Assembly (NCBI GenBank): GCA_027624915.1
Contig: JAQBTR010000001.1
Coordinates: forward strand, 35,609 to 99,608
From: a bacterium
Lineage (GTDB): Bacteria; Patescibacteriota; Minisyncoccia; Ryanbacterales; GWA2-47-10b
Length of the DNA stretch: 64,000 nucleotides
Reading direction: 5' to 3'
Shown: positions 4,277-58,820 of the stretch, in pieces
Layout: each line of letters begins with the position of its first letter
Numbering within the stretch: position 1 is the stretch's first letter
Notes under the pieces: generated by a model
Seen by the model: the letters and a program-made list of their open reading frames with translations, nothing else
The model's database searches: none
What the model was told of the DNA's origin: nothing
Translations under genes and position numbers: made by a program

Positions 4277-4822
4277 ATGAAGAAATTCATGCTTGGAAAA
4301 AAGCTCGAAATGAGCCAGATTTTTGAGGAAGACGGTACAGTAGTTCCTGTAACTGTTATTAAAGCTACTCCAATTGAGGTTACTCAGGTAAAAACAGATG
4401 AGAAGGATGGCTACAAGGCTGTTCAAGTTGCCACTGGCACCACACGACGAGAGTTTCGACCCGAAGAGAGCGAATTCAAGATGGGCGAAAAAATTGATGT
4501 CACCATTTTTGAAGCAGGCGACAAAGTAAAGATTGCAGGAGCCGTTAAGGGTCGCGGTTTCCAAGGTGTTGTAAAGCGACACAACTTTGCAGGTCAGCCA
4601 AAAACTCACGGCGTTAAACACGCTCACAGACAGCCAGGTTCCATTGGTGCTGTGTGGCCACAGCGCGTTGTAAAAGGAACTCGTATGGCAGGTCACATGG
4701 GTACCAATCGCGTAAGCATCCAGGGACTTAGGGTTGTTAAGACCGACAAAGAACAAAATCTTTTGTATATTCGTGGCGCCGTTCCAGGTGCACGCGGAAC
4801 TCTTTTAGAAATAACTGCATAA
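4277..4822 (+). CDS. rplC: 50S ribosomal protein L3.
   Basis: LGKKLEMSQIF...VTVIK... and GKGFQGVVKRHNF-like core motifs. Confidence 0.93.
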   Translation: MKKFMLGKKLEMSQIFEEDGTVVPVTVIKATPIEVTQVKTDEKDGYKAVQVATGTTRREFRPEESEFKMGEKIDVTIFEAGDKVKIAGAVKGRGFQGVVKRHNFAGQPKTHGVKHAHRQPGSIGAVWPQRVVKGTRMAGHMGTNRVSIQGLRVVKTDKEQNLLYIRGAVPGARGTLLEITA

Positions 4823-4823
4823 C

Positions 4824-5468
4824 ATGAAAGCTCCACTTTACAGTAAAGAAGGAAAGCAAGTTGGTGATGTAACACTCTCCGAATCACTCTTTGGTGTCCG
4901 TTGGAATTCAAAAATGGTTCAGGAAGTTGTTGTTGCTCTTCAGACTAATCGACGAGCAGGAACTGCACACACAAAAGATCGTGGAGATGTACGCGGTGGT
5001 GGTAAAAAGCCATGGCAACAGAAGGGAACTGGTCGCGCACGACACGGTTCAAGTCGTTCACCAATTTGGATTGGTGGAGGTGTAACCCACGGCCCAACAT
5101 CAGAAAAAAACTATTCAAAGAAGATTAACAAGGTTGTTAAGCGTAAGGCCCTTGCTACTGTATTATCCAAAAAACTCAAAGAAGGTGAGGTATATTTTGT
5201 TGAGGATTTAGTTATGCCAAACCCAAAGACAAAAGAGGCCTTCACTTCGGTTGAGTTGTTTGGAAAGAATGTTGGTATTGAGAAGCTTGGCAAAAAGGGA
5301 GGGCGCGCGCTCCTTCTTCTTGAAAAGCCTCACCCAGAAACAATCCGAGCATTCCGAAATCTTCCTTATATAACAATTGAGGAGGCACGAAACGTAAACG
5401 TCGAAGAGGCTTTGATTCCAAAGTACATTGTACTTACTAAGAACGCAGCTGATTCGATTAAGGCATAG
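4824..5468 (+). CDS. rplD: 50S ribosomal protein L4.
   Basis: ...KPWQQKGTGRARHGS...IWIGGGVTHGP... L4 signature. Confidence 0.93.
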   Translation: MKAPLYSKEGKQVGDVTLSESLFGVRWNSKMVQEVVVALQTNRRAGTAHTKDRGDVRGGGKKPWQQKGTGRARHGSSRSPIWIGGGVTHGPTSEKNYSKKINKVVKRKALATVLSKKLKEGEVYFVEDLVMPNPKTKEAFTSVELFGKNVGIEKLGKKGGRALLLLEKPHPETIRAFRNLPYITIEEARNVNVEEALIPKYIVLTKNAADSIKA

Positions 5469-5476
5469 GAGATTAT

Positions 5477-5902
5477 ATGGCACTTTTTGACTTCTTAAAG
5501 AAAAAAGAATATCAGGAAAAAATTGCACAACGTGCTGAGTCTAAAAAGGCACCTATTGAGAAAGCTACTGAGGCCCCAAAGGCCAAAGAAGCAGAGGAAA
5601 GGGTACCAGCTAGCTTGGAAGCACAGGTAAGTACCGAGGGTGTTTTGATAACCCCACACATTACAGAGCGAGCACGCGCTTTGGCTGAGATTGGGCAATA
5701 TGTTTTTCGAATTAACCGAGACGCAAACAAAGCTCAGGTTAAAAAGTCAGTGCAGGGCATGTACGGTGTTAACGTTGAGGGCGTAAAAGTTATTACAGTA
5801 CACGAGAAAAAGCGTCGTAGAGGCTTGACAGAGGGAGTTAAAAAGGGTTATAAAAAGGCGGTTGTAAGCCTTAGAGAGGGTGAAAAAATTGATATCTTTT
5901 AA
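5477..5902 (+). CDS. rplW: 50S ribosomal protein L23 with an N-terminal Lys/Glu-rich extension.
   Basis: C-terminal ...YVFRINRDANKAQVKKSVQGMYGVNVEGVKV... L23 core. Confidence 0.88.
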   Translation: MALFDFLKKKEYQEKIAQRAESKKAPIEKATEAPKAKEAEERVPASLEAQVSTEGVLITPHITERARALAEIGQYVFRINRDANKAQVKKSVQGMYGVNVEGVKVITVHEKKRRRGLTEGVKKGYKKAVVSLREGEKIDIF

Positions 5903-42617: not shown

Positions 42618-43019
42618 CTACTGCTCGTGAATTGCGAGGGTTGCTTCAACCCCATCGATAAGGGCTTGGAGGTATGCCATGGTATGAAGCGCTGATTCGC
42701 GTGCTTCTCTGTCGTCGGGATTTTGTCGTACACGATCTATGTGACGTGCCAGTTCAGATACGCTATGTGAAAATGAGCCCATTTGCTCGGCGTGTTGAGA
42801 AAGACATGTTGTCTTGTCAGATTCAGTGCTGGCCTCGATGACTTTTGTCATGCGACGGTCCAGGTCGTGGGCCACCTGATCATTTACTCGATCATGAAAT
42901 GCTCGAATGACATAGAGACTCTCTGGTCCATAGACCTGAGGTCTAAATGATACGATATTTGCTTCGCTCGCATTACAGATGGAGCGAGCCGAGTCTTCTA
43001 CTGCTCGTTCGAACGACAT
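42618..43019 (-). CDS. Hypothetical protein of 133 aa.
   Basis: ORF only; GC-richer than the core genes. Confidence 0.45.
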   Translation of the reverse strand: MSFERAVEDSARSICNASEANIVSFRPQVYGPESLYVIRAFHDRVNDQVAHDLDRRMTKVIEASTESDKTTCLSQHAEQMGSFSHSVSELARHIDRVRQNPDDREARESALHTMAYLQALIDGVEATLAIHEQ

Positions 43020-43099
43020 CCTAACCTCCTTTTATCTAGGAGAAAATATACCATAAAAAACTTATTTTGTAAATAAAAGCACTTCCCGAGTAGGAAGTG

Positions 43100-43447
43100 T
43101 TATGAAATTGGCTTTCGCATGGCGGTCAAGATGATTTCTCGTAGCTGGTAGTTTTGAACACTAAGGTCTTTTCTTGTTGGCCTGGTACATTCTTCGGGGA
43201 CTGTGTCCTTGGGGATCTCTCCACGAATTGCACCATGAATAAGTTCTATGAGAACTCTATTTTCAAACATCAGATATTCTTCACAACTTTCATATCGCTC
43301 AATTTCCTCAGACTGACGTTTGTTACGTTCTTCCAAGTCTCTAACATCAGCCTCAAGTTCTTCCACTCGTGCACGGAGTTGGATTGTTTGTCTTACAGCG
43401 GCACTACCCCTTGGTAATTCGCTAGAGCTCCAAGCTGTTTTTTTCAT
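43100..43447 (-). CDS. Hypothetical coiled-coil protein. Start assigned to the ATG at 43447 (MKKTAWSS...), which has RBS ggagg 5 nt upstream.
   Basis: RBS plus ATG; the track's TTG start at 43459 lacks an RBS. Confidence 0.5.
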   Translation of the reverse strand: MKKTAWSSSELPRGSAAVRQTIQLRARVEELEADVRDLEERNKRQSEEIERYESCEEYLMFENRVLIELIHGAIRGEIPKDTVPEECTRPTRKDLSVQNYQLREIILTAMRKPIS

Positions 43448-43477
43448 AGGTGCCTCCAAAAAAATTGTAACAAAAAT

Positions 43478-43520
43478 GCCCGGTTTGCGATACGACTATG
43501 CTAGTCGTTCGCAAACCGGG
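43478..43520. promoter_or_regulatory. Near-perfect palindrome with 21-bp arms: gcccggtttgcgatacgacta / tagtcgttcgcaaaccgggc. Operator or terminator.
   Basis: 20 of 21 positions complementary; on the minus strand it is followed by a U-rich tract and then the RBS of the 43447 gene. Confidence 0.5.
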
Positions 43521-43528
43521 CTTCAGCT

Positions 43529-43747
43529 TCAGTTCTTGGCGGTCTTCTTGCCGGCGCGAGCGCCACCGGCCTGCGAGCCACCGACGCCAGCGACCGGCGC
43601 ACCGCGCGTGACGCTGTCAGTCGGCTGGTTTCGGCGACGACGATGGGCGCGCTCCTGGCGACCACTCTTCCCAGAGTTGGCCTTGGGAGGGCAGTTGAAC
43701 TTTTTGTGCTCACGAGTTCCGGTACCACACTTACTGCAATGTGCCAT
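43529..43747 (-). CDS. Small basic Arg/Gly-rich protein with an N-terminal zinc-ribbon-like motif.
   Basis: Strong RBS aaggagg 6 nt upstream of the ATG; MAHCSKCG...FNCP; locally >60% GC. Confidence 0.5.
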   Translation of the reverse strand: MAHCSKCGTGTREHKKFNCPPKANSGKSGRQERAHRRRRNQPTDSVTRGAPVAGVGGSQAGGARAGKKTAKN

Positions 43748-43782
43748 TCTCTTCCTCCTTGGTTGGGCTCGCTACCGGCGAG

Positions 43783-44139
43783 CTAGTCTTTTCTCATCCC
43801 GCTGTCACCCGTTACTGGGTAGGGGATTTTTTGTTTCGCGATCGATACCCTGACAAGGGTGAAGACTGCGATGCTAACCCAGACCACCTCTAGGCCGACC
43901 ACCGGCCAGGCTGTTCTCACGTAGGCATGAAAGCCGTACGCGAGACCGCCTACGAGATTGATCCATTGGTACGAACGCCCAGTTGCCGCGACCTTCTCGG
44001 TCGAGACCAGGGCGTATGCAACGATGAAGCAAATGGTTCCGAACCACCCGACGTATTCGTCGAAAGCAAGTTGCAGGACACTCCTCCTGTCTGAGAACTG
44101 ATTTGTGAGCATATTAGCATGAAAATAAGCATTTGTCAA
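43783..44139 (-). CDS. Small 3-4 TM membrane protein.
   Basis: Hydrophobic ORF of 118 aa. Confidence 0.45.
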   Translation of the reverse strand: MTNAYFHANMLTNQFSDRRSVLQLAFDEYVGWFGTICFIVAYALVSTEKVAATGRSYQWINLVGGLAYGFHAYVRTAWPVVGLEVVWVSIAVFTLVRVSIAKQKIPYPVTGDSGMRKD

Positions 44140-47324: not shown

Positions 47325-48296
47325 CTATCCCTGACTTTTTTTGTTAGATAGGCTAGATAATATTTTTTCAACCGCCTTTATATCATCATCTTTTAATATA
47401 GAGAGACCCATTACCTTTTTGCTGTGTTTTTTGAGGATCGTTATTTTTTTCTTAAGCTCCTTTTCGTCTACTTCGTCACTTTTGCTTACAAATATATATT
47501 CTGGCTTGTCCATTAGTTCTGGATTATGTGCTTTGAGTTCTTTTCGTATTGTTTTGTAGTCGGCAACTGGAGTGGTGGATTCCGCGGATATAAAATGAAA
47601 TAACGTGCCAGTTCGTTCTACATGGCGCAAAAATTTTATTCCGAGACCCTTCCCTTTCGAGGCCCCCTCAATAAGTCCTGGGATGTCAGCTAAGATGAGG
47701 TCATGATATACACCAAGTGCTGGTTCAAGTGTAGTAAATGGGTAGTTAGCAACCTTACTTTGCGTATTGGTGATTTCGTTAATGAGGCTTGATTTGCCAA
47801 CATTTGGAAGACCAACAAAACCAACGTCAGCAATAAGCTTAAGCTCAAGACGTAACTCGAACTCTTCTCCAGGAAGTCCGGGTTGAGTTTGGGTAGGGCT
47901 CGTGTTGGTGGGTGAGCGGAAGCGATAGTTTCCCTTTCCTCCGAAGCCTCCTTTGGCGAACAATGTTTTTTCGCCGATAATTAAAACTTCTATGTCTTTT
48001 TTTGTGGTGAGGTTATGAATGACGGTCCCAACTGGGATTTTAATAACAAGGTCTTCTCCATGAGCACCATCATTGAGTTGTATTTTACCAGCTTCACCAT
48101 CCTCTGCTCTCACTTCTTTTTTGTATCTAAATTGATTCAATAGGTCGATATTGGACGATCCCTCTATATATATATTGCCGCCACGCCCTCCAGAACCTCC
48201 AGTTGGTCCCAAAGCAAGCGCATTCTTATCAAATGCGGACTTTCCAGGGCCACCGTGACCGGCAGCTAATGTGATTGTTATATCATCAATAAGCAT
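47325..48296 (-). CDS. obg: GTPase Obg/CgtA.
   Basis: Obg fold with Gly-rich loops (GGPGKS..., GGSGGRGGN, GGFGGKGN); G domain ADVGFVGLPNVGKSSL, ...DIPGLIEGA... Confidence 0.9.
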   Translation of the reverse strand: MLIDDITITLAAGHGGPGKSAFDKNALALGPTGGSGGRGGNIYIEGSSNIDLLNQFRYKKEVRAEDGEAGKIQLNDGAHGEDLVIKIPVGTVIHNLTTKKDIEVLIIGEKTLFAKGGFGGKGNYRFRSPTNTSPTQTQPGLPGEEFELRLELKLIADVGFVGLPNVGKSSLINEITNTQSKVANYPFTTLEPALGVYHDLILADIPGLIEGASKGKGLGIKFLRHVERTGTLFHFISAESTTPVADYKTIRKELKAHNPELMDKPEYIFVSKSDEVDEKELKKKITILKKHSKKVMGLSILKDDDIKAVEKILSSLSNKKSQG

Positions 48297-48339
48297 AAAG
48301 TAGTTGTGGGGCTACTACCAAACTTCATTTCTACCAAAA

Positions 48340-48436
48340 TCTCTAAATTTCGGCTACAACGTGTCAAAAGTTTTTTACCAATACCTATGGCATTAAGCTC
48401 AAAATTTTTGACTACGTTTCGCTCAAAATTTAGAGA
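48340..48436. repeat. Copy B of the ~95-nt intergenic repeat family. Its ends are perfect 10-bp inverted repeats, ctctaaattt / aaatttagag.
   Basis: Aligns by eye with copies A and C; internal tcaaaagtttttt / aaaatttttgac complementarity suggests a long hairpin. Confidence 0.7.
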
Positions 48437-48486
48437 CCCTGCTAACGAAAGCAAGTTTAGGAGTAGCCCCATTGTAGCGTGTATTG

Positions 48487-48515
48487 TCTTTAATCCAAAA
48501 AAACATCCTCGCACG
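48487..48515 (-). terminator. Minus-strand terminator atcctcgca-cgt-tgcgaggat plus T7 on the minus strand, after the oxidoreductase gene.
   Basis: Perfect 9-bp stem; A7 on the plus strand equals a T-run on the minus strand. Confidence 0.65.
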
Positions 48516-48524
48516 TTGCGAGGA

Positions 48525-50165
48525 TTAGAATCGGAGCATTTCGGCTGCTGCATTTCGACCGCAGATTCCCATGACGCCACCACCAGGATGACTAGCCGCT
48601 CCACACAAAAACAGGTTTTTGATTGGAGTTGTATGGTCGGCCCATCCGGCGACAGGTCTAAATGAAAAGAGCTGATGGGGGAGCATTGCCCCCTGAAAGA
48701 TGTTTCCACCAGTAAGACCGTATCTTGCCTCAATGTCAGGTGGCGCGAGCACTTCGCGATGGATGATTGAATTTCTAAATCCAGGTGCATACTGCTCGAT
48801 TTCTTGAGTACACAGATCCCCAAACCATTCGCGCTTATCATCCCACGTTCCGTCTCTTAGCTCGTACGGAGCGTATTGCACAAATATGTTCATGACATGA
48901 TGACCACTTCCTTCAGGTACGAGCGTTTTATCGATACTCGTTGGAAGTGTCATCTCGAGCACGGGTTCGTCGCTTGGATGCCCCATGAGCGCATCATGAT
49001 ATGCTTGCTCTATGTATCTGACATCAGGTGAGATGTGCATCGTACCCATATGGCACTCACCAATCCTGCCACCTGTTGGGAATGCAGTGAATCTTGGAGG
49101 TTCAGAAAGCACAAGATTGATTTTTGCTGATGCGGACGAGTAGTCAATTTTTTCTACTTCCTGTGCGAATAGCACAGGAAGTTCTTTTCGATCAACAAAG
49201 TGTAGAAAGGTATGATTAGCGTCCACGCTTGAAGCAATTTGTCTTGCATTAATGACAGTACCATCTTTGAGTTCGACAGCGCGTGCTTCTCCACCTATGA
49301 CAAAAATTTTGCCGACAGGTGATTCGCGCTTGATATCAACACCCAGGTCAAGACATGTTTTTTTGAGTGCACTGGCCAGTCCGCCCATGCCTCCACGGAC
49401 GTAGCCCCATACTCCACGAGCTCCACCCGCATCTCCCATTACGTGATGCAAGAGTACATAGGCACTACCAGGTGAGGACGGTGGCATGAAGGCGCCAATG
49501 ATGGCGTCTGTTGCGAGCGTTGCTTTGAGTGCATCGGTCTCGAACCATCTATCAAGAATAGGAGTCGCAGCACCTGTCAAAAACCTGATGGCATCCGGAA
49601 CATCATGCCCCAGTGAAATAGCAGACTTAAAGAGGGTAAAGAGTTTACGCGCATCGCGCATTCGTTTTGTGACACCCATCTGACGCCAAAAGTGTCCCAT
49701 TGGTATAATATCGGGAGCCGCCATCTGAATCGCGGGCTCGATTGCATCAGCAATGCGTTCAAGCAATGCTTCGTATGCGGGGTACCTTTCTGCATCAGTT
49801 TTACTAAAGCGCGAAATTTCTTCTTGGTTACGAACCATGTCTGCCCCTAAGATGAGGCTTCGATTATCAAGGAGTGGCGTAAACGAAGATGGTACTCGAG
49901 GTAGGATCTCGAGACCATTTTGCTTAAGTTTGAGACTATCAATGATGTCACTTGGCATGAGACTTAGAACGTATGCGGCAGTTGAGATTTTGTATCCCGG
50001 CCACAACTCTTCAGTTGTCGCCGCACCTCCAAGCACATGACGTCGCTCAAGTACGCAAACCTTCTTACCGGCTTTTGCCAAATAAGCAGCACACACAAGT
50101 CCATTGTGTCCGCCACCAATGATGATCGCGTCGTAGTCATGCTCTTCCATCACGATTCCTTTCAA
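48525..50165 (-). CDS. FAD-dependent oxidoreductase, phytoene desaturase (CrtI)-like / amine-oxidase family.
   Basis: N-terminal dinucleotide fold YDAIIIGGGHNGLVCAAYLAKAGKKVCVLERR; 546 aa; C-terminal ...GAASHPGGGV... Confidence 0.75.
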   Translation of the reverse strand: MKGIVMEEHDYDAIIIGGGHNGLVCAAYLAKAGKKVCVLERRHVLGGAATTEELWPGYKISTAAYVLSLMPSDIIDSLKLKQNGLEILPRVPSSFTPLLDNRSLILGADMVRNQEEISRFSKTDAERYPAYEALLERIADAIEPAIQMAAPDIIPMGHFWRQMGVTKRMRDARKLFTLFKSAISLGHDVPDAIRFLTGAATPILDRWFETDALKATLATDAIIGAFMPPSSPGSAYVLLHHVMGDAGGARGVWGYVRGGMGGLASALKKTCLDLGVDIKRESPVGKIFVIGGEARAVELKDGTVINARQIASSVDANHTFLHFVDRKELPVLFAQEVEKIDYSSASAKINLVLSEPPRFTAFPTGGRIGECHMGTMHISPDVRYIEQAYHDALMGHPSDEPVLEMTLPTSIDKTLVPEGSGHHVMNIFVQYAPYELRDGTWDDKREWFGDLCTQEIEQYAPGFRNSIIHREVLAPPDIEARYGLTGGNIFQGAMLPHQLFSFRPVAGWADHTTPIKNLFLCGAASHPGGGVMGICGRNAAAEMLRF

Positions 50166-50275
50166 TGTTTTTCTAGCTACACACTAAGCCGTGAGTAGTA
50201 TTTGGTCAAATAAAAAAGACACGAGTAAAGCCGCATGTGCGCGCGGCTTTTACAGTTGGACCTAACTCTTTCAAT

Positions 50276-51204: not shown

Positions 51205-51567
51205 TTGGTCTCTATGAAATCAGCACAAGAAATTTTCGATCGGATGCAAGAGGTTAAAGTCGAACAGCGCGAGCTACGCCGAGCGTATAAAGATACGCTT
51301 GATAACATGACTGACTACAGAGAACTAGTAGACCAGTACAACAAGGCCAGAGACAAAAAACTATCTATAGAGCACAAAGTTAAGCAGGATTCGGCTAACG
51401 AATTCGCCAAGCTCGAGACCATGAAGATGAATCTTAAGAGCGACCAAGAGATGTTAAGTGATATCGCGCTTACAACTATGATGAAGGGGGAGCAGGTGGA
51501 AATAACTGACCAGCACCAAAACGAATACGAACCAGTATTTTCAGTAAAGTTCAAAAAAAGGACCTAA
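51205..51567 (+). CDS. Hypothetical coiled-coil protein of 120 aa.
   Basis: ORF only. Confidence 0.45.
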   Translation: MVSMKSAQEIFDRMQEVKVEQRELRRAYKDTLDNMTDYRELVDQYNKARDKKLSIEHKVKQDSANEFAKLETMKMNLKSDQEMLSDIALTTMMKGEQVEITDQHQNEYEPVFSVKFKKRT

Positions 51568-51725
51568 AATTCAACGGCTCACCACAAGGGCATTTCCATT
51601 TTTATACTCTTTCCAGCCGTTAAAAATTAGGTCACATATATAAGCCGTTGAATTTTTGCATGAGAAAAGCCACCCATCGGGGTGACTTTCGCAGATCGGC
51701 TAGGACTCTGCGGATCCTTAGGTCT

Positions 51726-51935
51726 TCAGGCGATGTTGATGGTTTGCGGTATACTTCCGACGCCATCTTCACACCATGGGCCGGAGTCACCGAACATTTT
51801 GTGAGGTGCTATGACCCAGTTCATTTCCTCGCCATGGCCGGACTCCTCGAGCTCTTCTTGTTCGATGCTCGAGAGGCTGGCCGGGATGATTTGGTGCACA
51901 GACTGACACGAACAGCACACTCCTTCTTTTGTCAT
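51726..51935 (-). CDS. Possible small protein of 69 aa in a GC-richer segment just downstream of ssrA.
   Basis: aggaaa 4 nt upstream of the ATG; hairpin plus U-tract downstream on the minus strand. The overlapping plus-strand ORF 51648..52049 runs into the tmRNA gene and is judged spurious. Confidence 0.3.
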   Translation of the reverse strand: MTKEGVCCSCQSVHQIIPASLSSIEQEELEESGHGEEMNWVIAPHKMFGDSGPWCEDGVGSIPQTINIA

Positions 51936-51983
51936 GAGCTTTCCTGTTCGATTCCGCTTTTACCTATCCACCAACAAAAAACA

Positions 51984-52006
51984 CGGACACAAGGTCCGTA
52001 TTTTTT
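51984..52006. terminator. Hairpin cggac-acaag-gtccg with flanking T-runs on both strands; terminates ssrA on the minus strand.
   Basis: Located immediately 3' of the tmRNA CCA end. Confidence 0.5.
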
Positions 52007-52008
52007 AT

Positions 52009-52351
52009 TGGTGGAGACGGGCGGAATCGAACCGCCGTCCGAAGAGTAATATAGAAAGAATTTGTTACAAGCTTGTCTAGTTTTTAAGGCTAGAGGTTTG
52101 CTCGATGGGGTGTCGCGATACCGTATCGAGCAGTAGTATCGCCAAGCTCGAATTTATAACACCGGTTACCAGACAGTCGAGCGCCAACTGGGCCGATGGC
52201 CTATGCTATTTAAGCGTAGGCGGGTACGAGCTCTCGCTCGCCAAATAAGTTTGCACTTATCAAGTACACGGACAGTTTTGAAAGAGTTAGCCGTGTCGGC
52301 TCTTGCTTGATCCCTAATATAAAAGCTTCCCCGTCGAAGCCTAGCGTCCCC
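52009..52351 (-). ncRNA. ssrA: tmRNA (transfer-messenger RNA, SsrA), ~343 nt with an encoded CCA end. Predicted tag reading frame resumes at GCA-AAC and reads ANLFGERELVPAYA-stop (UAA at 52210-52212).
   Basis: 5' end GGGGACGCUAGGCUUCGACGGGG (compare E. coli GGGGCUGAUUCUGGAUUCGACGGG). 3' end GGCGGUUCGAUUCCGCCCGUCUCCACCA (T-arm + acceptor + CCA). A 7-bp acceptor stem can form with one G-U pair. Adjacent to smpB. Confidence 0.85.
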
Positions 52352-52422: not shown

Positions 52423-52866
52423 TTATTCGTACTTGAGAGTTCGGCTGATGTTGCGGTCAGACTCACGCTTTTTAATCTTGTCGCGTTTGTCGAACTTCTT
52501 TTTACCACGTCCAACACCAAATTCAAGTTTTAAGTTTCGACCCTTATTATACAACGAAATAGGCACTAATGTCAAGCCCTTCTCGTGCTCTTTTCCAGCC
52601 AGATAGCTAAGCTCTTTTTTACCTAAAAGAAGCTTGCGCGTACGTCCTACATCATAGTCACTTGGAGTGTTTGCTGATTGGTATGGTGGCACATGTCCTC
52701 CAATTAAAAATGCCTCACTTCCGCGGACAATCACGCGAGCTCCATCGAGCTTTGCATCTCCGCGTCTGATTGCTTTTACTTCATATCCAAAAAGCTCGAT
52801 GCCTGCTTCGAACTTCTCAAGAATCTCATAATCAAAATAAGCTTTTTTGTTTGATGCTAGTGCCAT
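52423..52866 (-). CDS. smpB: SsrA-binding protein SmpB.
   Basis: ...NKKAYFDYEILEKFEAGIELFGYEVKAIRRGDAKLDGARVIVRGSEAFLIGGHVPPYQ... SmpB signature; basic C-terminal tail. Confidence 0.9.
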   Translation of the reverse strand: MALASNKKAYFDYEILEKFEAGIELFGYEVKAIRRGDAKLDGARVIVRGSEAFLIGGHVPPYQSANTPSDYDVGRTRKLLLGKKELSYLAGKEHEKGLTLVPISLYNKGRNLKLEFGVGRGKKKFDKRDKIKKRESDRNISRTLKYE

Positions 52867-55502: not shown

Positions 55503-58500
55503 ATGCATGATGAGCATGAGGTCCTTGGATTTTGGGCCCAGCGGAAGATATTCGAGAAGAGTATCAAACAACGCGGGGCGAAAGCCAAGCGTTTTGTTTT
55601 TTTTGAGGGTCCACCATATGCCAATGGTCTCCCTGGTATACATCACGTAGAAGCACGTGCTTTTAAGGATGTTGTTGCGCGCTACAAGACATTGCGTGGT
55701 TTTCGTGTTGAGCGTAGAGCTGGATGGGATACTCATGGTTTGCCAACGGAGATGGCAGTAGAAAAGAAGCTTGGCATCAAATCCAAGCGTGAGATTGAAG
55801 AAAGGATAGGTGTTAAGGCCTTTGTTCAAGCAGCTAGAGAGGACGTGTTTTTCTATAAAAGAGAGTGGGAGCGCATGACCGAGCGAATGGGGTATTGGCT
55901 CGATTTTAAAAATGCCTATGTCACCATGGATAACTCATACATTGAGTCTTTGTGGTGGATTATGAAAGAGTTTTGGGACAAAAAGCTTTTCTATGAGGAC
56001 AGAAAGGTTTTGCCGTGGTGCTCTAGGTGTGGAACGGGACTTTCTACACATGAAGTAGCGCAGGGTTACAAAAAAATTACAGAAACATCTGTTTATGTAC
56101 GATTTTATCTCAAAACACGCAGAGGAGTTCTCTTAGTGTGGACAACAACACCATGGACGCTTCCTGCCAACGTGGCAGCGGCTGTTGACCCCAAGGCAAC
56201 ATACGTAACCATTGATGACCGAGGCGAGAAGTTTATTTTGCATGAGAAGTTGGCGTCCAAGCTATTCCCTAGTGTTGAGCCACAGTTCAAAGAAAAGGGT
56301 AGCGACCTAGTTGGTCTTACGTACGACCCGCCATTTGGTCACGATGACATTCCTTATAAAGTAGTAGGTGCTGATTTTGTTTCAGACAAAGATGGAACGG
56401 GTATCGTACATATTGCACCAGCCTTCGGTGAGGACGATATGCGTGTTGCTAAAGATGAGGAGTTACCCGTTTTGATGACGGTAGATGACGAAGGAAAATT
56501 TAACGATGAAGTTCCACAATGGAAGGGACAGTTTGTAAAAGATGCTGACCCAGACATAATCAAAGACCTAAAGCAAAAGGGTATTTTGTGGCGCGAAGAA
56601 GAGTACGAGCATGATTATCCATTTTGTTGGAGATGTGATTCTCCGCTTATTTATCTAGCGCGCAAGTCCTGGTGGGTGAAAGTGAGCAGTATGCGCCAGC
56701 AATTAGTTGAGGCAAACAAAGAAATTAATTGGTACCCAGAATATCTCAAGGAGGGTCGCTTTGGACAGTGGATTAGTGAAGCAAAAGACTGGGCGTTTTC
56801 CAGAGAACGATATTGGGGGACACCAATTCCTGTTTGGCAGTGTACCGAATGTAACAATTCTGAAATGTTTGGTTCGGTAGAAGAGATGAAAAAGCGTACA
56901 AGGCCATCATTAAATAATTACTTTTTGATGCGTCATGGACTTGCCAAGTCAAATATGCTTGATATTGGTGTTGGCAATCCAAAAGACGATGTGTGGGGGA
57001 TTACCCCAAAGGGAAAACTTCAGGTTAAAAAAGCTATAACAAAACTTAAAAAAGAAGATATTGATTTGGTTATTTCTTCTGATCTTTTACGTACAAAAGA
57101 AACAGCACAGATGATTGCTAAGGAATTACATGTTCCTATTTTGTATGATGAGGATTTACGCGAGATGCAGTTTGGAGACTATGAGCGTAAAAATTCTCGC
57201 CCAATTATGGATGAGTGGGGTTTGACTGCCGAGCGACTCGATATGAAACTTCCTGGCATGGGCGCCGAATCATGGAACGATATTAAAGCACGTATGAATA
57301 AAGTCTTTAAGCGACTTGAGGAACTACATAAAAATAAAAATATTGTCCTTGTTGGCCACGGTGACCCACACTGGTTTTTGGAAGCTATTATGACGGGCTC
57401 ATCTGATCCAGAGGGTATTCCCGATGTTGCCGTCTATCCAACCAAGGGAGATTTTCATAAGGTTACACCTGTTTCTCTCCCTCGAGATGATAAGGGTAAT
57501 CTAGACTTGCACAAGCCTTTTATTGATGAGGTTAAAATCGATTGTACTCGCTGTCGAGCACCCATGCGCCGCACAATTGGAGTAGCTGATGTGTGGTTTG
57601 ATTCGGGCTCTATGCCGTATGCCGCATGGCACTATCCATTTGAGAACAAAGCACAAATCGACAAAAAGATTTCATTCCCAGCAGATTATATAGCAGAGGC
57701 AATCGACCAGACGCGTGGATGGTTTTATAACCTACTATCTGTATCTGTGCTCCTTGGAAAAGGTGCTCCATATAAAAATGTAATTTCACTCGGTCACGTA
57801 CTCGACAAAAAAGGTAAGAAAATGTCTAAGTCAAAGGGTAATGGAGTCAACCCAATGGATCTCTTCGAAAAGTATGGTGCCGATGCCGTTCGATGGTACT
57901 TCTTTACGGTGAATCAACCAGAGGATTCTAAGGTATTTGATGAACTTGATATACAAAAAGCAAAACGAAACTTTCTTGATCTATTAACAAACTCGGCCAA
58001 GTTCTACGAGATGTATAAAACAAGCAAGCGTACCACCAAGAAACACGTCCTTGATGAGTGGGTGCTTGCTCGTCTAGGCGAAGTTAGAGAAGACATGACC
58101 AAAAAAATGGATGAGTATGATATTGTTGGGGCCGCACGAGAACTCGAAAAATTTGTAGCAGAAGATATTTCTAGATGGTATTTGCGTCGTTCGCGTGAGC
58201 GTATGCGGACCGGACAAGGAGTGTCCATCCTACGAACGGTCTTGCTAGAGACGGCAATTCTTGCATCGCCCTTTGTACCGTTCACTTCAGAGATTCTCTA
58301 TACTTCTCTTGGTGGCAAATCAAAGAGCGTTCATTTAAGCGATTGGCCAGAAAAACGAGCTTCCACACGCAAACTATTAACTGACATGCAAGAAGTACGA
58401 ATGTTGGCAGCACGAGGGCTCGAATTGCGTTCCCGTTCGGGATTAAAAATTAGACAGCCCCTTGCATCATTCTCTGTAAAATCACGAAAGTTAAAAGAGA

Positions 58501-58820
58501 AAAAATTGTTAAATGTGCTTGCCGAAGAGCTTAACGTAAAAAATATTCTTATTGGTAAAAAAATAAAGGAGGACGTAGAGCTCGATACTGTTCTTACCCC
58601 AATCTTGAAAGAGGAGGGTGAGGTACGAGAGACTATTAGATTAGTACAGAACATGAGAAAGGAAGAGGGGCTTCATCCAAGAGACCTTATTATGCTTACT
58701 TTATCTGGAACATTTTCAAAGGTATCACTCAAAAGTATTAAGGATGGCGTGCATGCAAAAACGGTTACATTAAAAAATAAGACTGTGAAAGTCGAGATAC
58801 ATGGGATTACAAAAGTTTAA
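55503..58820 (+). CDS. ileS: Isoleucyl-tRNA synthetase (KMSKS type) carrying a ~190-aa in-frame histidine-phosphatase (PGAM-like) domain at aa ~466-660.
   Basis: HIGH region PPYANGLPGIHH; editing domain TTTPWTLPAN...GTGIVHIAPAFGEDD; KMSKS = KKMSKSKGN. Insert carries LMRHGLAKSN (RHG motif) and ...IVLVGHGDPHW... (second catalytic His). Confidence 0.9.
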   Translation: MHDEHEVLGFWAQRKIFEKSIKQRGAKAKRFVFFEGPPYANGLPGIHHVEARAFKDVVARYKTLRGFRVERRAGWDTHGLPTEMAVEKKLGIKSKREIEERIGVKAFVQAAREDVFFYKREWERMTERMGYWLDFKNAYVTMDNSYIESLWWIMKEFWDKKLFYEDRKVLPWCSRCGTGLSTHEVAQGYKKITETSVYVRFYLKTRRGVLLVWTTTPWTLPANVAAAVDPKATYVTIDDRGEKFILHEKLASKLFPSVEPQFKEKGSDLVGLTYDPPFGHDDIPYKVVGADFVSDKDGTGIVHIAPAFGEDDMRVAKDEELPVLMTVDDEGKFNDEVPQWKGQFVKDADPDIIKDLKQKGILWREEEYEHDYPFCWRCDSPLIYLARKSWWVKVSSMRQQLVEANKEINWYPEYLKEGRFGQWISEAKDWAFSRERYWGTPIPVWQCTECNNSEMFGSVEEMKKRTRPSLNNYFLMRHGLAKSNMLDIGVGNPKDDVWGITPKGKLQVKKAITKLKKEDIDLVISSDLLRTKETAQMIAKELHVPILYDEDLREMQFGDYERKNSRPIMDEWGLTAERLDMKLPGMGAESWNDIKARMNKVFKRLEELHKNKNIVLVGHGDPHWFLEAIMTGSSDPEGIPDVAVYPTKGDFHKVTPVSLPRDDKGNLDLHKPFIDEVKIDCTRCRAPMRRTIGVADVWFDSGSMPYAAWHYPFENKAQIDKKISFPADYIAEAIDQTRGWFYNLLSVSVLLGKGAPYKNVISLGHVLDKKGKKMSKSKGNGVNPMDLFEKYGADAVRWYFFTVNQPEDSKVFDELDIQKAKRNFLDLLTNSAKFYEMYKTSKRTTKKHVLDEWVLARLGEVREDMTKKMDEYDIVGAARELEKFVAEDISRWYLRRSRERMRTGQGVSILRTVLLETAILASPFVPFTSEILYTSLGGKSKSVHLSDWPEKRASTRKLLTDMQEVRMLAARGLELRSRSGLKIRQPLASFSVKSRKLKEKKLLNVLAEELNVKNILIGKKIKEDVELDTVLTPILKEEGEVRETIRLVQNMRKEEGLHPRDLIMLTLSGTFSKVSLKSIKDGVHAKTVTLKNKTVKVEIHGITKV

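Follow-up and report, generated by a model that had tools for sequence, protein, structure and literature searches.

The 64-kb stretch of DNA analysed here, called the window, is from an uncultivated Parcubacteria/Paceibacteria (CPR) bacterium, and it carries on its minus strand a tmRNA gene (ssrA) preceded by smpB, which encodes the protein partner of the tmRNA. An earlier note, made from the sequence, had placed such a gene at 52351..52009 (-), and within the window ARAGORN and the Rfam model RF00023 both return exactly these coordinates. The features of the gene pair are the following (labels such as L083 denote related loci, contigs or genomes used for comparison).

52423..52866 (-): smpB, 147 aa plus stop, tmRNA protein partner (Pfam PF01668, E 8.5e-46, profile positions 2-142 of 143)
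52546..52575 (-): candidate sigma-70-type promoter in the smpB codons G-L-T-L-V-P-I-S-L-Y-N-K (12/12 consensus match)
52009..52351 (-): ssrA, one-piece tmRNA of 343 nt with an encoded CCA end (ARAGORN and RF00023)
52345..52351 (-): acceptor-stem 5' strand GGGGACG (base-by-base pairing with CGTCTCC of the 3' end)
52244..52261 (-): predicted AU-rich hairpin (G)AUAAGU-GCAA-ACUUAU(U), with the resume codon GCA in its 4-nt loop (comparison with relatives)
52210..52254 (-): tag frame GCA AAC ... GCT TAA, encoding ANLFGERELVPAYA* (ARAGORN and sequence check)
52009..52036 (-): T-arm, acceptor 3' strand and ACCA end of the tRNA-like domain (Rfam alignment, posterior probability about 1.0)

The tmRNA gene and its candidate promoter

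The match to RF00023 covers the full length of the model (1-374 of 374) and scores 98.3 bits (E 3.7e-37) against a gathering score of 47 bits, and this search, which the earlier note had proposed as a check, confirms the ends of the gene. The 5' end GGGGACGCUAGGCUUCGACGGGG and the 3' end GGCGGUUCGAUUCCGCCCGUCUCCACCA that had been quoted as halves of the tRNA-like domain are both located in the sequence. The acceptor stem has 7 bp, with a G·T at position 3 (the G3·U70 wobble, which is an identity element for alanyl-tRNA synthetase), and is followed by ACCA. SmpB, correctly predicted to lie immediately upstream, is encoded at 52866..52423, separated from ssrA by a spacer of 71 nt, and shares 72-76% identity with SmpB of Cand. 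Ryanbacteria MAGs and of the metagenome contig L083. The gene is identified as a tmRNA because two independent detectors give the same ends, G3·U70 is present, SmpB is complete, and a second, independent assembly (L081, 99.97% identical) agrees at the locus and yields the same tag.

This RNA shares with the E. coli-type tmRNA (RF00023) the tRNA-like domain with its G3·U70 stem, T-arm and CCA end, an internal GCA-AAC frame without a start codon, a short hydrophobic tail, and a gene located beside smpB. On the other hand, it is shorter than the standard tmRNA (343 nt), its PK4 region is reduced (17 nt, compared with 52 in the consensus), a predicted AU-rich hairpin presents the resume codon in its loop, the probable promoter is found inside smpB, and the tag ends in ...PAYA instead of ...LAA. 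In the pseudoknot region the Rfam alignment is locally weak, with an average posterior of 0.73. Altogether, the ssrA of the window is an ordinary tmRNA gene.

The sequence TTGACA-N18-TATAAT, with its -35 element at 52575..52570 and its -10 element at 52551..52546, is the sole 12/12 consensus match in the 64-kb window, and it lies within the coding sequence of smpB. Its two elements are held at synonymous sites: among 106 unique smpB segments of relatives, TTGACA or TTGACT is found in 95 and TATAAT or TATACT in 93, and the leucine codon of the -35 element is TTG in 98 of 100 cases, compared with 28% elsewhere in the same genes. Moreover, the smpB-ssrA spacer of L083 and L001 has just 10-12 nt and thus leaves no space for an intergenic promoter. 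This smpB-internal sequence is probably the ssrA promoter, and the leader of the transcript would then be about 185 nt long; across the clade, the ssrA promoter seems to be encoded within smpB itself and preserved through the choice of synonymous codons. A search of the literature on a promoter within smpB returned nothing relevant.

The life of the RNA can be sketched from these elements. Transcription of ssrA would start from the sigma-70-type promoter in the 3' half of smpB, perhaps with some read-through from smpB, and would end at the intrinsic terminator directly after the encoded CCA, and RNase P would trim the transcript at G1. By the established tmRNA mechanism, alanyl-tRNA synthetase would charge the RNA through its G3·U70 acceptor stem, the charged RNA would enter stalled ribosomes together with SmpB, and translation would resume at GCA (52254), adding (A)ANLFGERELVPAYA to the stalled protein before the ribosome is freed at TAA.

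The DNA downstream of ssrA

Between ssrA and the next gene, which is convergent with it, lie 441 nt (51568-52008) that contain a terminator, an inverted copy of the ssrA 3' end and a GC-rich segment.

51975..52008 (-): intrinsic terminator, with A-tract 52008..52001, stem TACGGAC/GTCCGTG 52000..51982 and T-tract 51981..51975 (terminator scan)
51946..51974 (-): inverted copy of the ssrA 3' end, beginning with TTGGTGG (51974..51968), which complements CCACCAA
51568..51945 (-): GC-rich (0.52-0.53), genome-specific filler with an orphan ORF and a terminator-like hairpin near 51690
51935..51726 (-): orphan ORF of 69 aa
51214..51567 (+): conserved hypothetical gene of 117 aa, convergent with ssrA, with 72-79% identity to ORFs directly after ssrA in L002, L085 and L094

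The second part of the inverted copy is the 12-mer GCGGAATCGAAC (51957..51946), complementary to the T-loop GTTCGATTCCGC. The copy lengthens the terminator to a 36-bp imperfect palindrome, whose RNA fold reaches -55.9 kcal/mol (z -7.6), and the inverted match to the ssrA 3' end extends over 61 nt with 75% identity (E 3.6e-6); its local alignment score of 12 was reached in 0/300 shuffles, for which the maximum was 10. Three other readings of this arrangement were rejected. A convergent tRNA or tRNA pseudogene at the inverted T-loop copy is not seen by ARAGORN or by Rfam (E up to 10), and the putative T-stem is unpaired. A retroelement primer-binding site, which would pair with the mature CCA end, does not fit relatives without an encoded CCA, in which the copy follows the genomic flank and not CCA. 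Finally, the order T-arm, acceptor 3' strand and CCA, hairpin, acceptor-complementary sequence is shared with permuted, two-piece tmRNA (RF04321) and gives weak matches to that model (23 bits, E 0.0087, in the window and 21 bits in L030, both far under the gathering score of 47), but in the window the match is preceded by an intact standard tmRNA and has no coding piece after it.

The remainder of the segment differs from genome to genome. The earlier note had described the flank 51650-52000 as GC-richer and as carrying a small ORF, which is accurate: its GC content is 0.516, compared with 0.427 for the window, placing it in the top 1.4% of 351-nt windows, and an ORF of 69 codons occupies 51935..51726. 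Neither the DNA of the filler nor its translation matches anything in 160 related loci, and the 441-nt segment has no repeat elsewhere in the window. The segment 51568-52008 is missing at the same site in L002, L085, L094, L083 and L001, a coarse comparison because those relatives share just 70-76% SmpB identity. In four genomes, ssrA and the convergent gene are 45, about 400, about 610 and 441 nt apart, and what lies between them is unrelated from one genome to the next; the shortest slot, of ~45 nt only, is that of L002. Synteny with relatives resumes at the 117-aa convergent gene, which has a host-like codon score (0.24) and is also predicted in the ENA assembly. The 441-nt segment itself is a variable, GC-rich and probably non-coding filler.

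Many relatives appear to carry an unclassified structured RNA directly after ssrA or tRNA-Ile. At least 19 related loci have, after the terminator of ssrA or of tRNA-Ile(UAU) and on the same strand, a strongly covarying module of ~150 nt that has no Rfam family. It is composed, in this order, of an inverted copy of the 3' end of the upstream gene, hairpins, the conserved GAGCYGGGGTCG, a long hairpin and a direct copy. The inverted and direct copies, which reproduce the final ~10-25 nt of the RNA gene upstream, pair as the closing helix of the module and track the sequence of that gene in each lineage. An alanine-accepting minihelix was rejected as the identity of this helix, since an A-U stands where the tmRNA has G3·U70. 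The inverted copy at 51974..51946 could well be the 5' vestige of such a module, the remainder having been lost or overwritten here, although this falls somewhat short of being probable. The window shows the first two elements of the module in the same position and order, the inverted-copy motif also occupies that position in L083, L086, L012 and in the RNA module of relatives, and the resemblance to L012 is close (GTGGATGGCGGAATCGAACAGGGAGG vs GGTGGATAGG..GCGGAATCGAACAGGAAAG). Against this, a covariance model of the module (R1, comprising the closing helix, P3 and the long hairpin with its GGUCGCG/CGUGACC base) has no match in the ssrA flank region with default filters, and with filters off its best score anywhere in 51400-52100 is 1.9 bits; folding of 51980..51755 gives an unremarkable z of -1.9, and a bidirectional terminator could come to be flanked by such a long palindrome with no module involved.

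A little more tentatively still, the palindromic flank may be what is left of a hitherto undescribed parcubacterial RNA element, structured and ~150 nt long when intact. If so, the module could be a processed 3'-trailer RNA or a tiny element able to place copies of itself at tRNA and tmRNA gene ends, and either possibility would also explain the variable slot at the ssrA 3' flank in the clade.

The earlier note had instead viewed the ssrA 3' flank as a site of island integration, and had suggested looking for a direct repeat of the ssrA 3' end as the boundary of the inserted element. The tmRNA gene is the most enriched target for integration by tyrosine integrases (PMC4383910), and the flank resembles islands in the Islander definition (PMC4383910) in its location at the ssrA 3' end, its atypical composition and its lineage-specific content, absent from relatives; it differs from them in having neither a direct displaced 3' fragment nor a tyrosine integrase, and just 441 nt after ssrA are slot-specific. 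The repeat search found no direct copy of the ssrA 3' end in the window: the last 25 nt have no direct match with at most 3 mismatches, no k-mer of at least 13 nt from the last 80 nt recurs, and across positions 1-52008 (52 kb downstream) no direct repeat appears when 4 mismatches are tolerated in 20 nt or 9 in 30 nt. In the 12.5 kb that follow ssrA (39.5-52 kb), the longer ORFs (about 70-550 aa) were scanned against Pfam, which identified no integrase or transposase domain; the products recognised are PhoH-PIN, bPH, FA_hydroxylase, DUF2061, Obg, amine oxidase and hypotheticals. The gene for the essential GTPase Obg is located in this interval, and it is also downstream of ssrA in L083. The flank is GC-rich, genome-specific and variable among relatives, so it can be called a variable slot, and not an island.

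A weaker form of this idea, in which the GC-rich DNA is what remains, after decay, of a mobile element once integrated at the ssrA 3' end, is unlikely. It would account for the GC content and for the absence of the segment from every related locus, for the slot lengths and unrelated sequences in the four genomes, and for the partial inverted copy of the ssrA 3' end. In addition, two contigs of the original assembly, from the same sample, end with a 55-nt overlap exactly at the distal junction of the flank, leaving room for a past insertion event. However, the lack of a direct repeat and of an integrase in the window speaks against a remnant, as does the orientation of its copy: site-specific integration does not yield an inverted copy of the target 3' end. 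Direct repeats of the ssrA 3' end are found 110-200 nt downstream in L083, L086, L040, L059/L159 and L121, but they bracket just these 110-200 nt and form the closing helix of the covarying RNA structure, with a conserved G·U pair, and they are therefore under selection at the RNA level and not scars of attachment sites. Viral contigs were scanned with the 23-nt ssrA 3' end and with a 20-mer from L083, and every match fell in a tmRNA gene that belongs to an unrelated bacterium and encodes another tag, with no CPR phage attP among them.

The 69-aa ORF might also be a real, novel cysteine-containing protein, expressed by read-through from ssrA or from its own start, which is quite improbable. 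Its ATG follows GGAAAG, the frame is open for 69 codons, and a terminator-like hairpin (GTCACCC-CGAT-GGGTGGC-TTTT) lies ~40 nt beyond the stop. Nevertheless, Pfam gave no match, and a search of 5.8 billion protein clusters returned no homologue; its own sequence is missing from that collection too, which therefore has no record of it as a predicted protein; it is not called in the ENA assembly and is missing from all 160 related loci. Its codon score (-0.06) is below those of all 18 host genes (0.13-0.56) and no different from what its antisense frame gives (0.004); its GC3 is 0.62, compared with 0.37 for host genes. A gene prediction for this ORF should not be trusted, and 52009..52351 (-) should be annotated as ssrA.

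Tag frame and tag ending in the clade

The resume codon GCA is located at 52254..52252 and the stop codon TAA at 52212..52210 (-), and ARAGORN and the sequence check agree on the tag ANLFGERELVPAYA that the earlier note had predicted. That note took the site, at gene position 98, to be the only in-frame GCA-AAC; the choice of site was right, but GCAAAC is also present at gene position 251. Apart from this second site, nothing was found to suggest that ARAGORN chose the wrong resume codon and that the true tag is canonical, which is hardly conceivable given that the second GCAAAC encodes only ANL*, that no alanine-started frame in gene positions 50-170 has the LAA ending (a canonical ...ALAA tag from another resume codon being the result that the earlier note had named as refuting its prediction), that the Rfam alignment places the consensus UGCaAAC on position 98, and that frame, start and stop are kept across relatives. 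In 20 aligned relatives the resume codon is GCA, GCC or GCT, which are synonymous, and the TAA stop is invariant; between the window and L083 the tag codons show 3 synonymous and 2 replacement changes. The hairpin around the resume codon can be drawn in 21 of 24 unique tmRNAs with 'ANL...' tags, compared with 0 of 48 tmRNAs of other tag types, and it stands as a predicted structure because its stem is invariant and shows no covariation.

The E. coli SsrA tag is ANDENYALAA, and the C-terminal L-A-A-COOH of the ClpX-type degron is replaced in the window by A-Y-A. The comparison with tags of CPR relatives, proposed as an alignment in the earlier note, drew on about 94 related tmRNAs, which between them carry 69 unique tags: LAA is the ending of 0/69, A[Y/F]A of 26/69, AYA of 13/69 and PAYA of 5/69, and the tag of the nearest relative is ANLFGERQLTPAYA. 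The idea of an unusual degron thus holds with respect to E. coli and its ...ALAA, but not with respect to the clade; the ...PAYA ending is shared across related tags, is the norm for the clade and therefore says nothing special about this genome. Parcubacteria as a group would appear to have given up the LAA ending for A-Y/F-A. A comparable case is that of the Mollicutes, in which the Mesoplasma florum tag, ...NYAFA, is read by Lon, ClpXP being absent (PMC9382460). Both groups have a C-terminal A-Y/F-A instead of LAA across a whole lineage of reduced genomes; however, the phyla are unrelated, the tag of the window is shorter (14 vs 27 residues), and the likeness is known here from the tag sequence.

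Taken as a whole, the sequence evidence makes it very probable that this locus holds a functional one-piece tmRNA gene of Parcubacteria (CPR) directly after smpB, with a clade-standard ...PAYA tag ending, and a 441-nt flank that is probably non-coding filler and not an integrase-borne island. The points at the level of the clade, namely the A-Y/F-A tags, the smpB-embedded promoter and the RNA after ssrA, may matter more than the gene of the window itself.

The loss of LAA in Parcubacteria would raise a testable question: once a ribosome has been rescued in such a minimal cell, which protease degrades the tagged protein? As a guess, the ...PAYA tag may be read by an AAA+ protease such as FtsH or Lon, and not by the LAA-reading ClpX. 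In tblastn searches with E. coli sequences (ClpP, ClpX and the Lon/FtsH cores), ClpP, ClpX and Lon had no match in the window or in 169 loci, which are small neighbourhoods mostly around ssrA, and FtsH was the sole protease matched, never in the window. The literature search on CPR or Parcubacteria tag sequences and on their Clp, Lon and FtsH content retrieved nothing relevant. The FtsH gene adjoins smpB in 54 related loci, and in only 2/30 of the subgroup with ANL tags, to which the window belongs. As an observation on gene order, FtsH is encoded back-to-back with smpB in many Parcubacteria.

The tmRNA-SmpB locus and its tag

The sole RNA gene found by ARAGORN in the 64-kb window is a tmRNA gene (ssrA) with the tag ANLFGERELVPAYA*, and the Rfam model RF00023 matches it end to end at the same coordinates (98.3 bits against a gathering score of 47, E 3.7e-37). 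The earlier note had read an unannotated tmRNA at this place, immediately downstream of smpB, and both the 5' and 3' strings that it quoted are present in the sequence; smpB is complete and ends 71 nt before the tmRNA starts. The acceptor stem is GGGGACG/CGTCTCC with a G3·U70 wobble, followed by ACCA. A second, independently assembled sequence of this organism (L081, ENA ERZ23495043 scaffold_5097; 99.97% identity across 11.3 kb) gives an identical tmRNA. The tmRNA-SmpB locus is real and ordinary, and its source is an uncultivated Parcubacteria bacterium.

Features of the locus, all on the minus strand
52866..52423: smpB, complete ORF (PF01668, E 8.5e-46)
52575..52546: perfect TTGACA-N18-TATAAT, inside smpB codons GLTLVPISLYNK
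52009..52351: tmRNA (ssrA), by ARAGORN and Rfam RF00023
52244-52261: predicted resume-codon hairpin, GCA in a GCAA tetraloop on an AUAAGU/ACUUAU stem
52000..51982: ssrA terminator stem, preceding the inverted copy
51974..51968: TTGGTGG, complementary to CCACCAA, directly after the terminator
51957..51946: GCGGAATCGAAC, complementary to the T-loop, after the TTGGTGG element
51935..51726: small ORF after ssrA, without homologues

Relatives were retrieved by SmpB from GTDB genomes and JGI metagenomes, which returned only Parcubacteria/Paceibacteria (CPR), the nearest overall being the metagenome contig Ga0194121_10000448 (L083, 76% identity) and the nearest named ones two Candidatus Ryanbacteria MAGs (72-74%). 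ARAGORN found 94 tmRNAs in about 160 related loci, and among the 69 unique tags tabulated none ends in LAA or ALAA, while A[Y/F]A is the ending of 26, AYA of 13 and PAYA of five; AYA or AFA occurs among the last six residues of 48, and 14 start with ANLF. Across 20 aligned sequences only GCA, GCC and GCT are seen as the resume codon, and the TAA stop of the tag frame is invariant. The tag of L083, ANLFGERQLTPAYA, has two residues unlike the window tag, and its frame has three more codon changes, all synonymous. No alternative Ala-started frame of the window tmRNA ends in LAA, and a different resume codon giving a canonical ALAA tag was looked for and not found. Given this survey, the conserved frame and the lack of an LAA-ending alternative, the tag was correctly predicted in the earlier note; its "only" GCA-AAC site is in fact one of two GCAAAC copies, the second of which (gene position 251) encodes just ANL*. 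Its description of the tag as non-canonical holds in that the tag is unlike the E. coli type, yet within its clade the tag is entirely typical. Among documented tags the closest parallel is the NYAFA ending in Mollicutes, which is read by Lon in organisms that lack active ClpXP (PMC9382460).

A 4-nt loop on an AAUAAGU/ACUUAUU stem holds the resume codon in 21 of the 24 unique "ANL..." tmRNAs but in 0/48 of the rest, and the stem does not vary among the tmRNAs carrying it, hence shows no covariation. Since the hairpin is confined to the ANL tmRNAs, what keeps the N-L-F of the tag conserved may be a constraint on the RNA, not on the protein.

When E. coli ClpP, ClpX, Lon core and FtsH core were compared by tblastn with the 1.5 Mb of fetched loci, FtsH was the sole protease matched, with no match for ClpP, ClpX or Lon. 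The ftsH gene lies upstream of smpB, divergently, in 54 related loci (about 100 have enough upstream flank), for example at ~4475-5840 of the minus strand in the related locus L030. This arrangement occurs in 39/64 loci with non-ANL tags and in 2/30 with ANL tags, the subgroup to which the window belongs, and tblastn found no FtsH in the window itself. SsrA-tagged proteins are reportedly degraded by FtsH via their non-polar C-termini, a finding credited to Herman et al. in 1998. Because Parcubacteria loci with ftsH back-to-back with smpB-ssrA have mostly ...FAYAxA-type tags, the gene neighbourhood suggests FtsH as the tag-reading protease of those lineages.

A candidate ssrA promoter inside smpB

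The only 12/12 promoter match in the 64-kb window is the TTGACA-N18-TATAAT inside smpB. Among 106 unique related smpB segments, the -35 is TTGACA or TTGACT in 95 and the -10 is TATAAT or TATACT in 93. Leu at this site is encoded by TTG in 98/100, against 28% elsewhere in the same smpB genes, Tyr is TAT in 69/71 and Asn is AAT in 70/71, with third-codon positions between the -35 and the -10 near saturation. About 95 of the 106 unique Parcubacteria smpB genes thus preserve the motif at synonymous sites. In L083 and in another related locus, L001, the smpB-ssrA spacer of 10-12 nt leaves no room for an intergenic promoter. The element is probably the ssrA promoter, and transcripts starting from it would carry a leader of about 185 nt, to be removed by RNase P. 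A literature search found no paper on such a promoter within smpB. This candidate promoter, the tag ending and an RNA module downstream of ssrA in relatives are the points that deserve attention at the level of the clade.

The variable region after ssrA

The earlier note had proposed the ssrA 3' end as an island integration site. Islander defines islands inserted into tRNA or tmRNA genes by a displaced 3' fragment of the target, in direct orientation, together with an integrase (PMC4383910). The 52 kb downstream of ssrA within the window contain no direct repeat of its 3' end at any stringency tried, and no recombinase is found among the ORFs at 39.5-52 kb, which encode PhoH-PIN, a bPH protein, a fatty-acid hydroxylase, DUF2061, Obg, an amine-oxidase-like flavoprotein and small hypotheticals. 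The island hypothesis thus fails its two defining tests.

The flank at 51650-52000 is GC-richer, as had been noted (0.516 against 0.427, top 1.4% of windows), and the small ORF reported there is present. It is probably non-coding: its codon score of -0.06 equals that of the antisense frame and lies under all 18 reference genes, its GC3 is 0.62 against 0.37, no homologue exists among 5.8 billion protein clusters, where its own sequence is not on record as a predicted protein either, and no related locus matches it.

A convergent homologue of the window ORF 51214-51567 (72-79% identity) follows ssrA in the related loci L002, L085 and L094, at gaps of about 45, 400 and 610 nt respectively, compared with 441 nt in the window, and the gaps are filled by unrelated sequences. 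Gene order is different again in L083 and L001, and a ZIP-transporter gene (39504 in the window) that is 12.5 kb from ssrA in the window lies closer in L083 (about 4.3 kb) and closer still in L001 (about 0.5 kb). By these differences the region after ssrA is a variable slot in these genomes, GC-rich and probably non-coding in the window; as the relatives are distant, they are weak evidence for any particular event. Two contigs of the original ENA assembly, with ends at 51528 and 51582, overlap by 55 nt precisely where the 441-nt segment meets the conserved gene at its distal edge; this fits an assembly-graph branch and is a hint of strain heterogeneity, though it proves nothing.

An unalignable patch (51 nt against 56 nt) and one gap set the second contig apart from the window at 48557-48612, close to where the amine-oxidase-like gene ends on its 3' side, and the ENA assembly calls no gene there. 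This amine-oxidase/phytoene-desaturase-like gene (50165..48525) has no counterpart in any related locus and lies in one of the further GC-rich patches of the window, 48000-50200 (0.45-0.49) and 43000-44000 (0.51, against 0.427), the latter including overlapping ORFs with poor codon scores (43320-43853).

A structured RNA module in relatives

In 18/78 unique related loci ssrA is followed by an inverted copy of its own 3' end, and there the copy opens a conserved module of ~150 nt located directly after the terminator of ssrA or of tRNA-Ile(UAU).

Elements of the module in related loci, in order
1: inverted copy, acceptor 3' strand
2: optional hairpin
3: inverted T-loop copy
4: short helix around a second hairpin
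5: motif GAGCYGGGGTCG, opening a long third hairpin
6: GTGACC
7: direct copy of the upstream gene's 3' end, then a second terminator
Examples: L050:6954-7105, L009:7185-7329, L030:6945-7100, L016:7687-7832, L115:2385-2528, L018:4-88 (minus strand), L024:1264-1368

The inverted and direct copies of the upstream gene's 3' end form the closing helix. R1, a covariance model trained on 11 copies, finds copies outside its training set, three of them directly after tRNA-Ile(UAU) (L018, L024, L115). In a 19-sequence alignment, which was fitted to R1 and is so biased towards structure, pairing cells reach 91.3% against 70.1% in shuffles (0/500 as high), compensatory changes occur in 22/25 pairs and the covariation score is 0.58, against 0.21 in shuffles and about 0.09 in slid controls; independent MAFFT/RNAalifold is in agreement. 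One pair, G·U in 16/19 sequences, assigns the RNA to the ssrA-sense strand. The module has no match among Rfam 15 families.

In L083, L086, L040, L059/L159 and L121 the ssrA 3' end is repeated in direct orientation, and these repeats initially resembled att sites. In L086, L040 and L121 they are the closing helix of the module, with R1 matches that are just marginal for L086 (17 bits, E 0.026). In L083 (10758-10919) a perfect direct repeat of the last 20 nt of ssrA (AATTCCCACCATCTCCACCA) stands 122 nt downstream, ahead of a second terminator; this region looks att-like and is not matched by R1, but it folds into a closing helix and two hairpins (z -4.0), a minimal version of the module. The repeat of L059/L159, without an R1 match, would belong to the module by similar layout only.

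In the window, TTGGTGG and GCGGAATCGAAC extend the ssrA terminator to a 36-bp imperfect palindrome with a predicted RNA fold of -55.9 kcal/mol (z -7.6). Its inverted match to the ssrA 3' end has a blastn E of 3.6e-6 and an alignment score above 300/300 shuffles. The copy gives the island idea no support, since the repeats made by site-specific integration are in direct orientation, not inverted. The palindrome may simply be an extended terminator; the module is absent from the window, where R1 reaches at most 1.9 bits even with filters off and the fold of the region tested is unremarkable. That the palindrome is a stump of the relatives' module, which begins with such an inverted copy, is conceivable though somewhat doubtful.

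About 30 related loci have a TAT-anticodon (UAU) tRNA-Ile gene within a few kb of smpB-ssrA (for example L003:2810-2884, L009:3837-3912 and L024:1175-1249), while ARAGORN finds no tRNA gene in the 64-kb window. The window also encodes, at 55503-58820 of the plus strand, a 1105-aa isoleucyl-tRNA synthetase whose catalytic domain is split into two halves by an inserted histidine-phosphatase domain (PF00300, E 7.9e-30, residues 474-631). Five related loci (L001, L002, L068, L080, L045) align over the full length with this arrangement, and in L033 the phosphatase part is separately encoded, just upstream.
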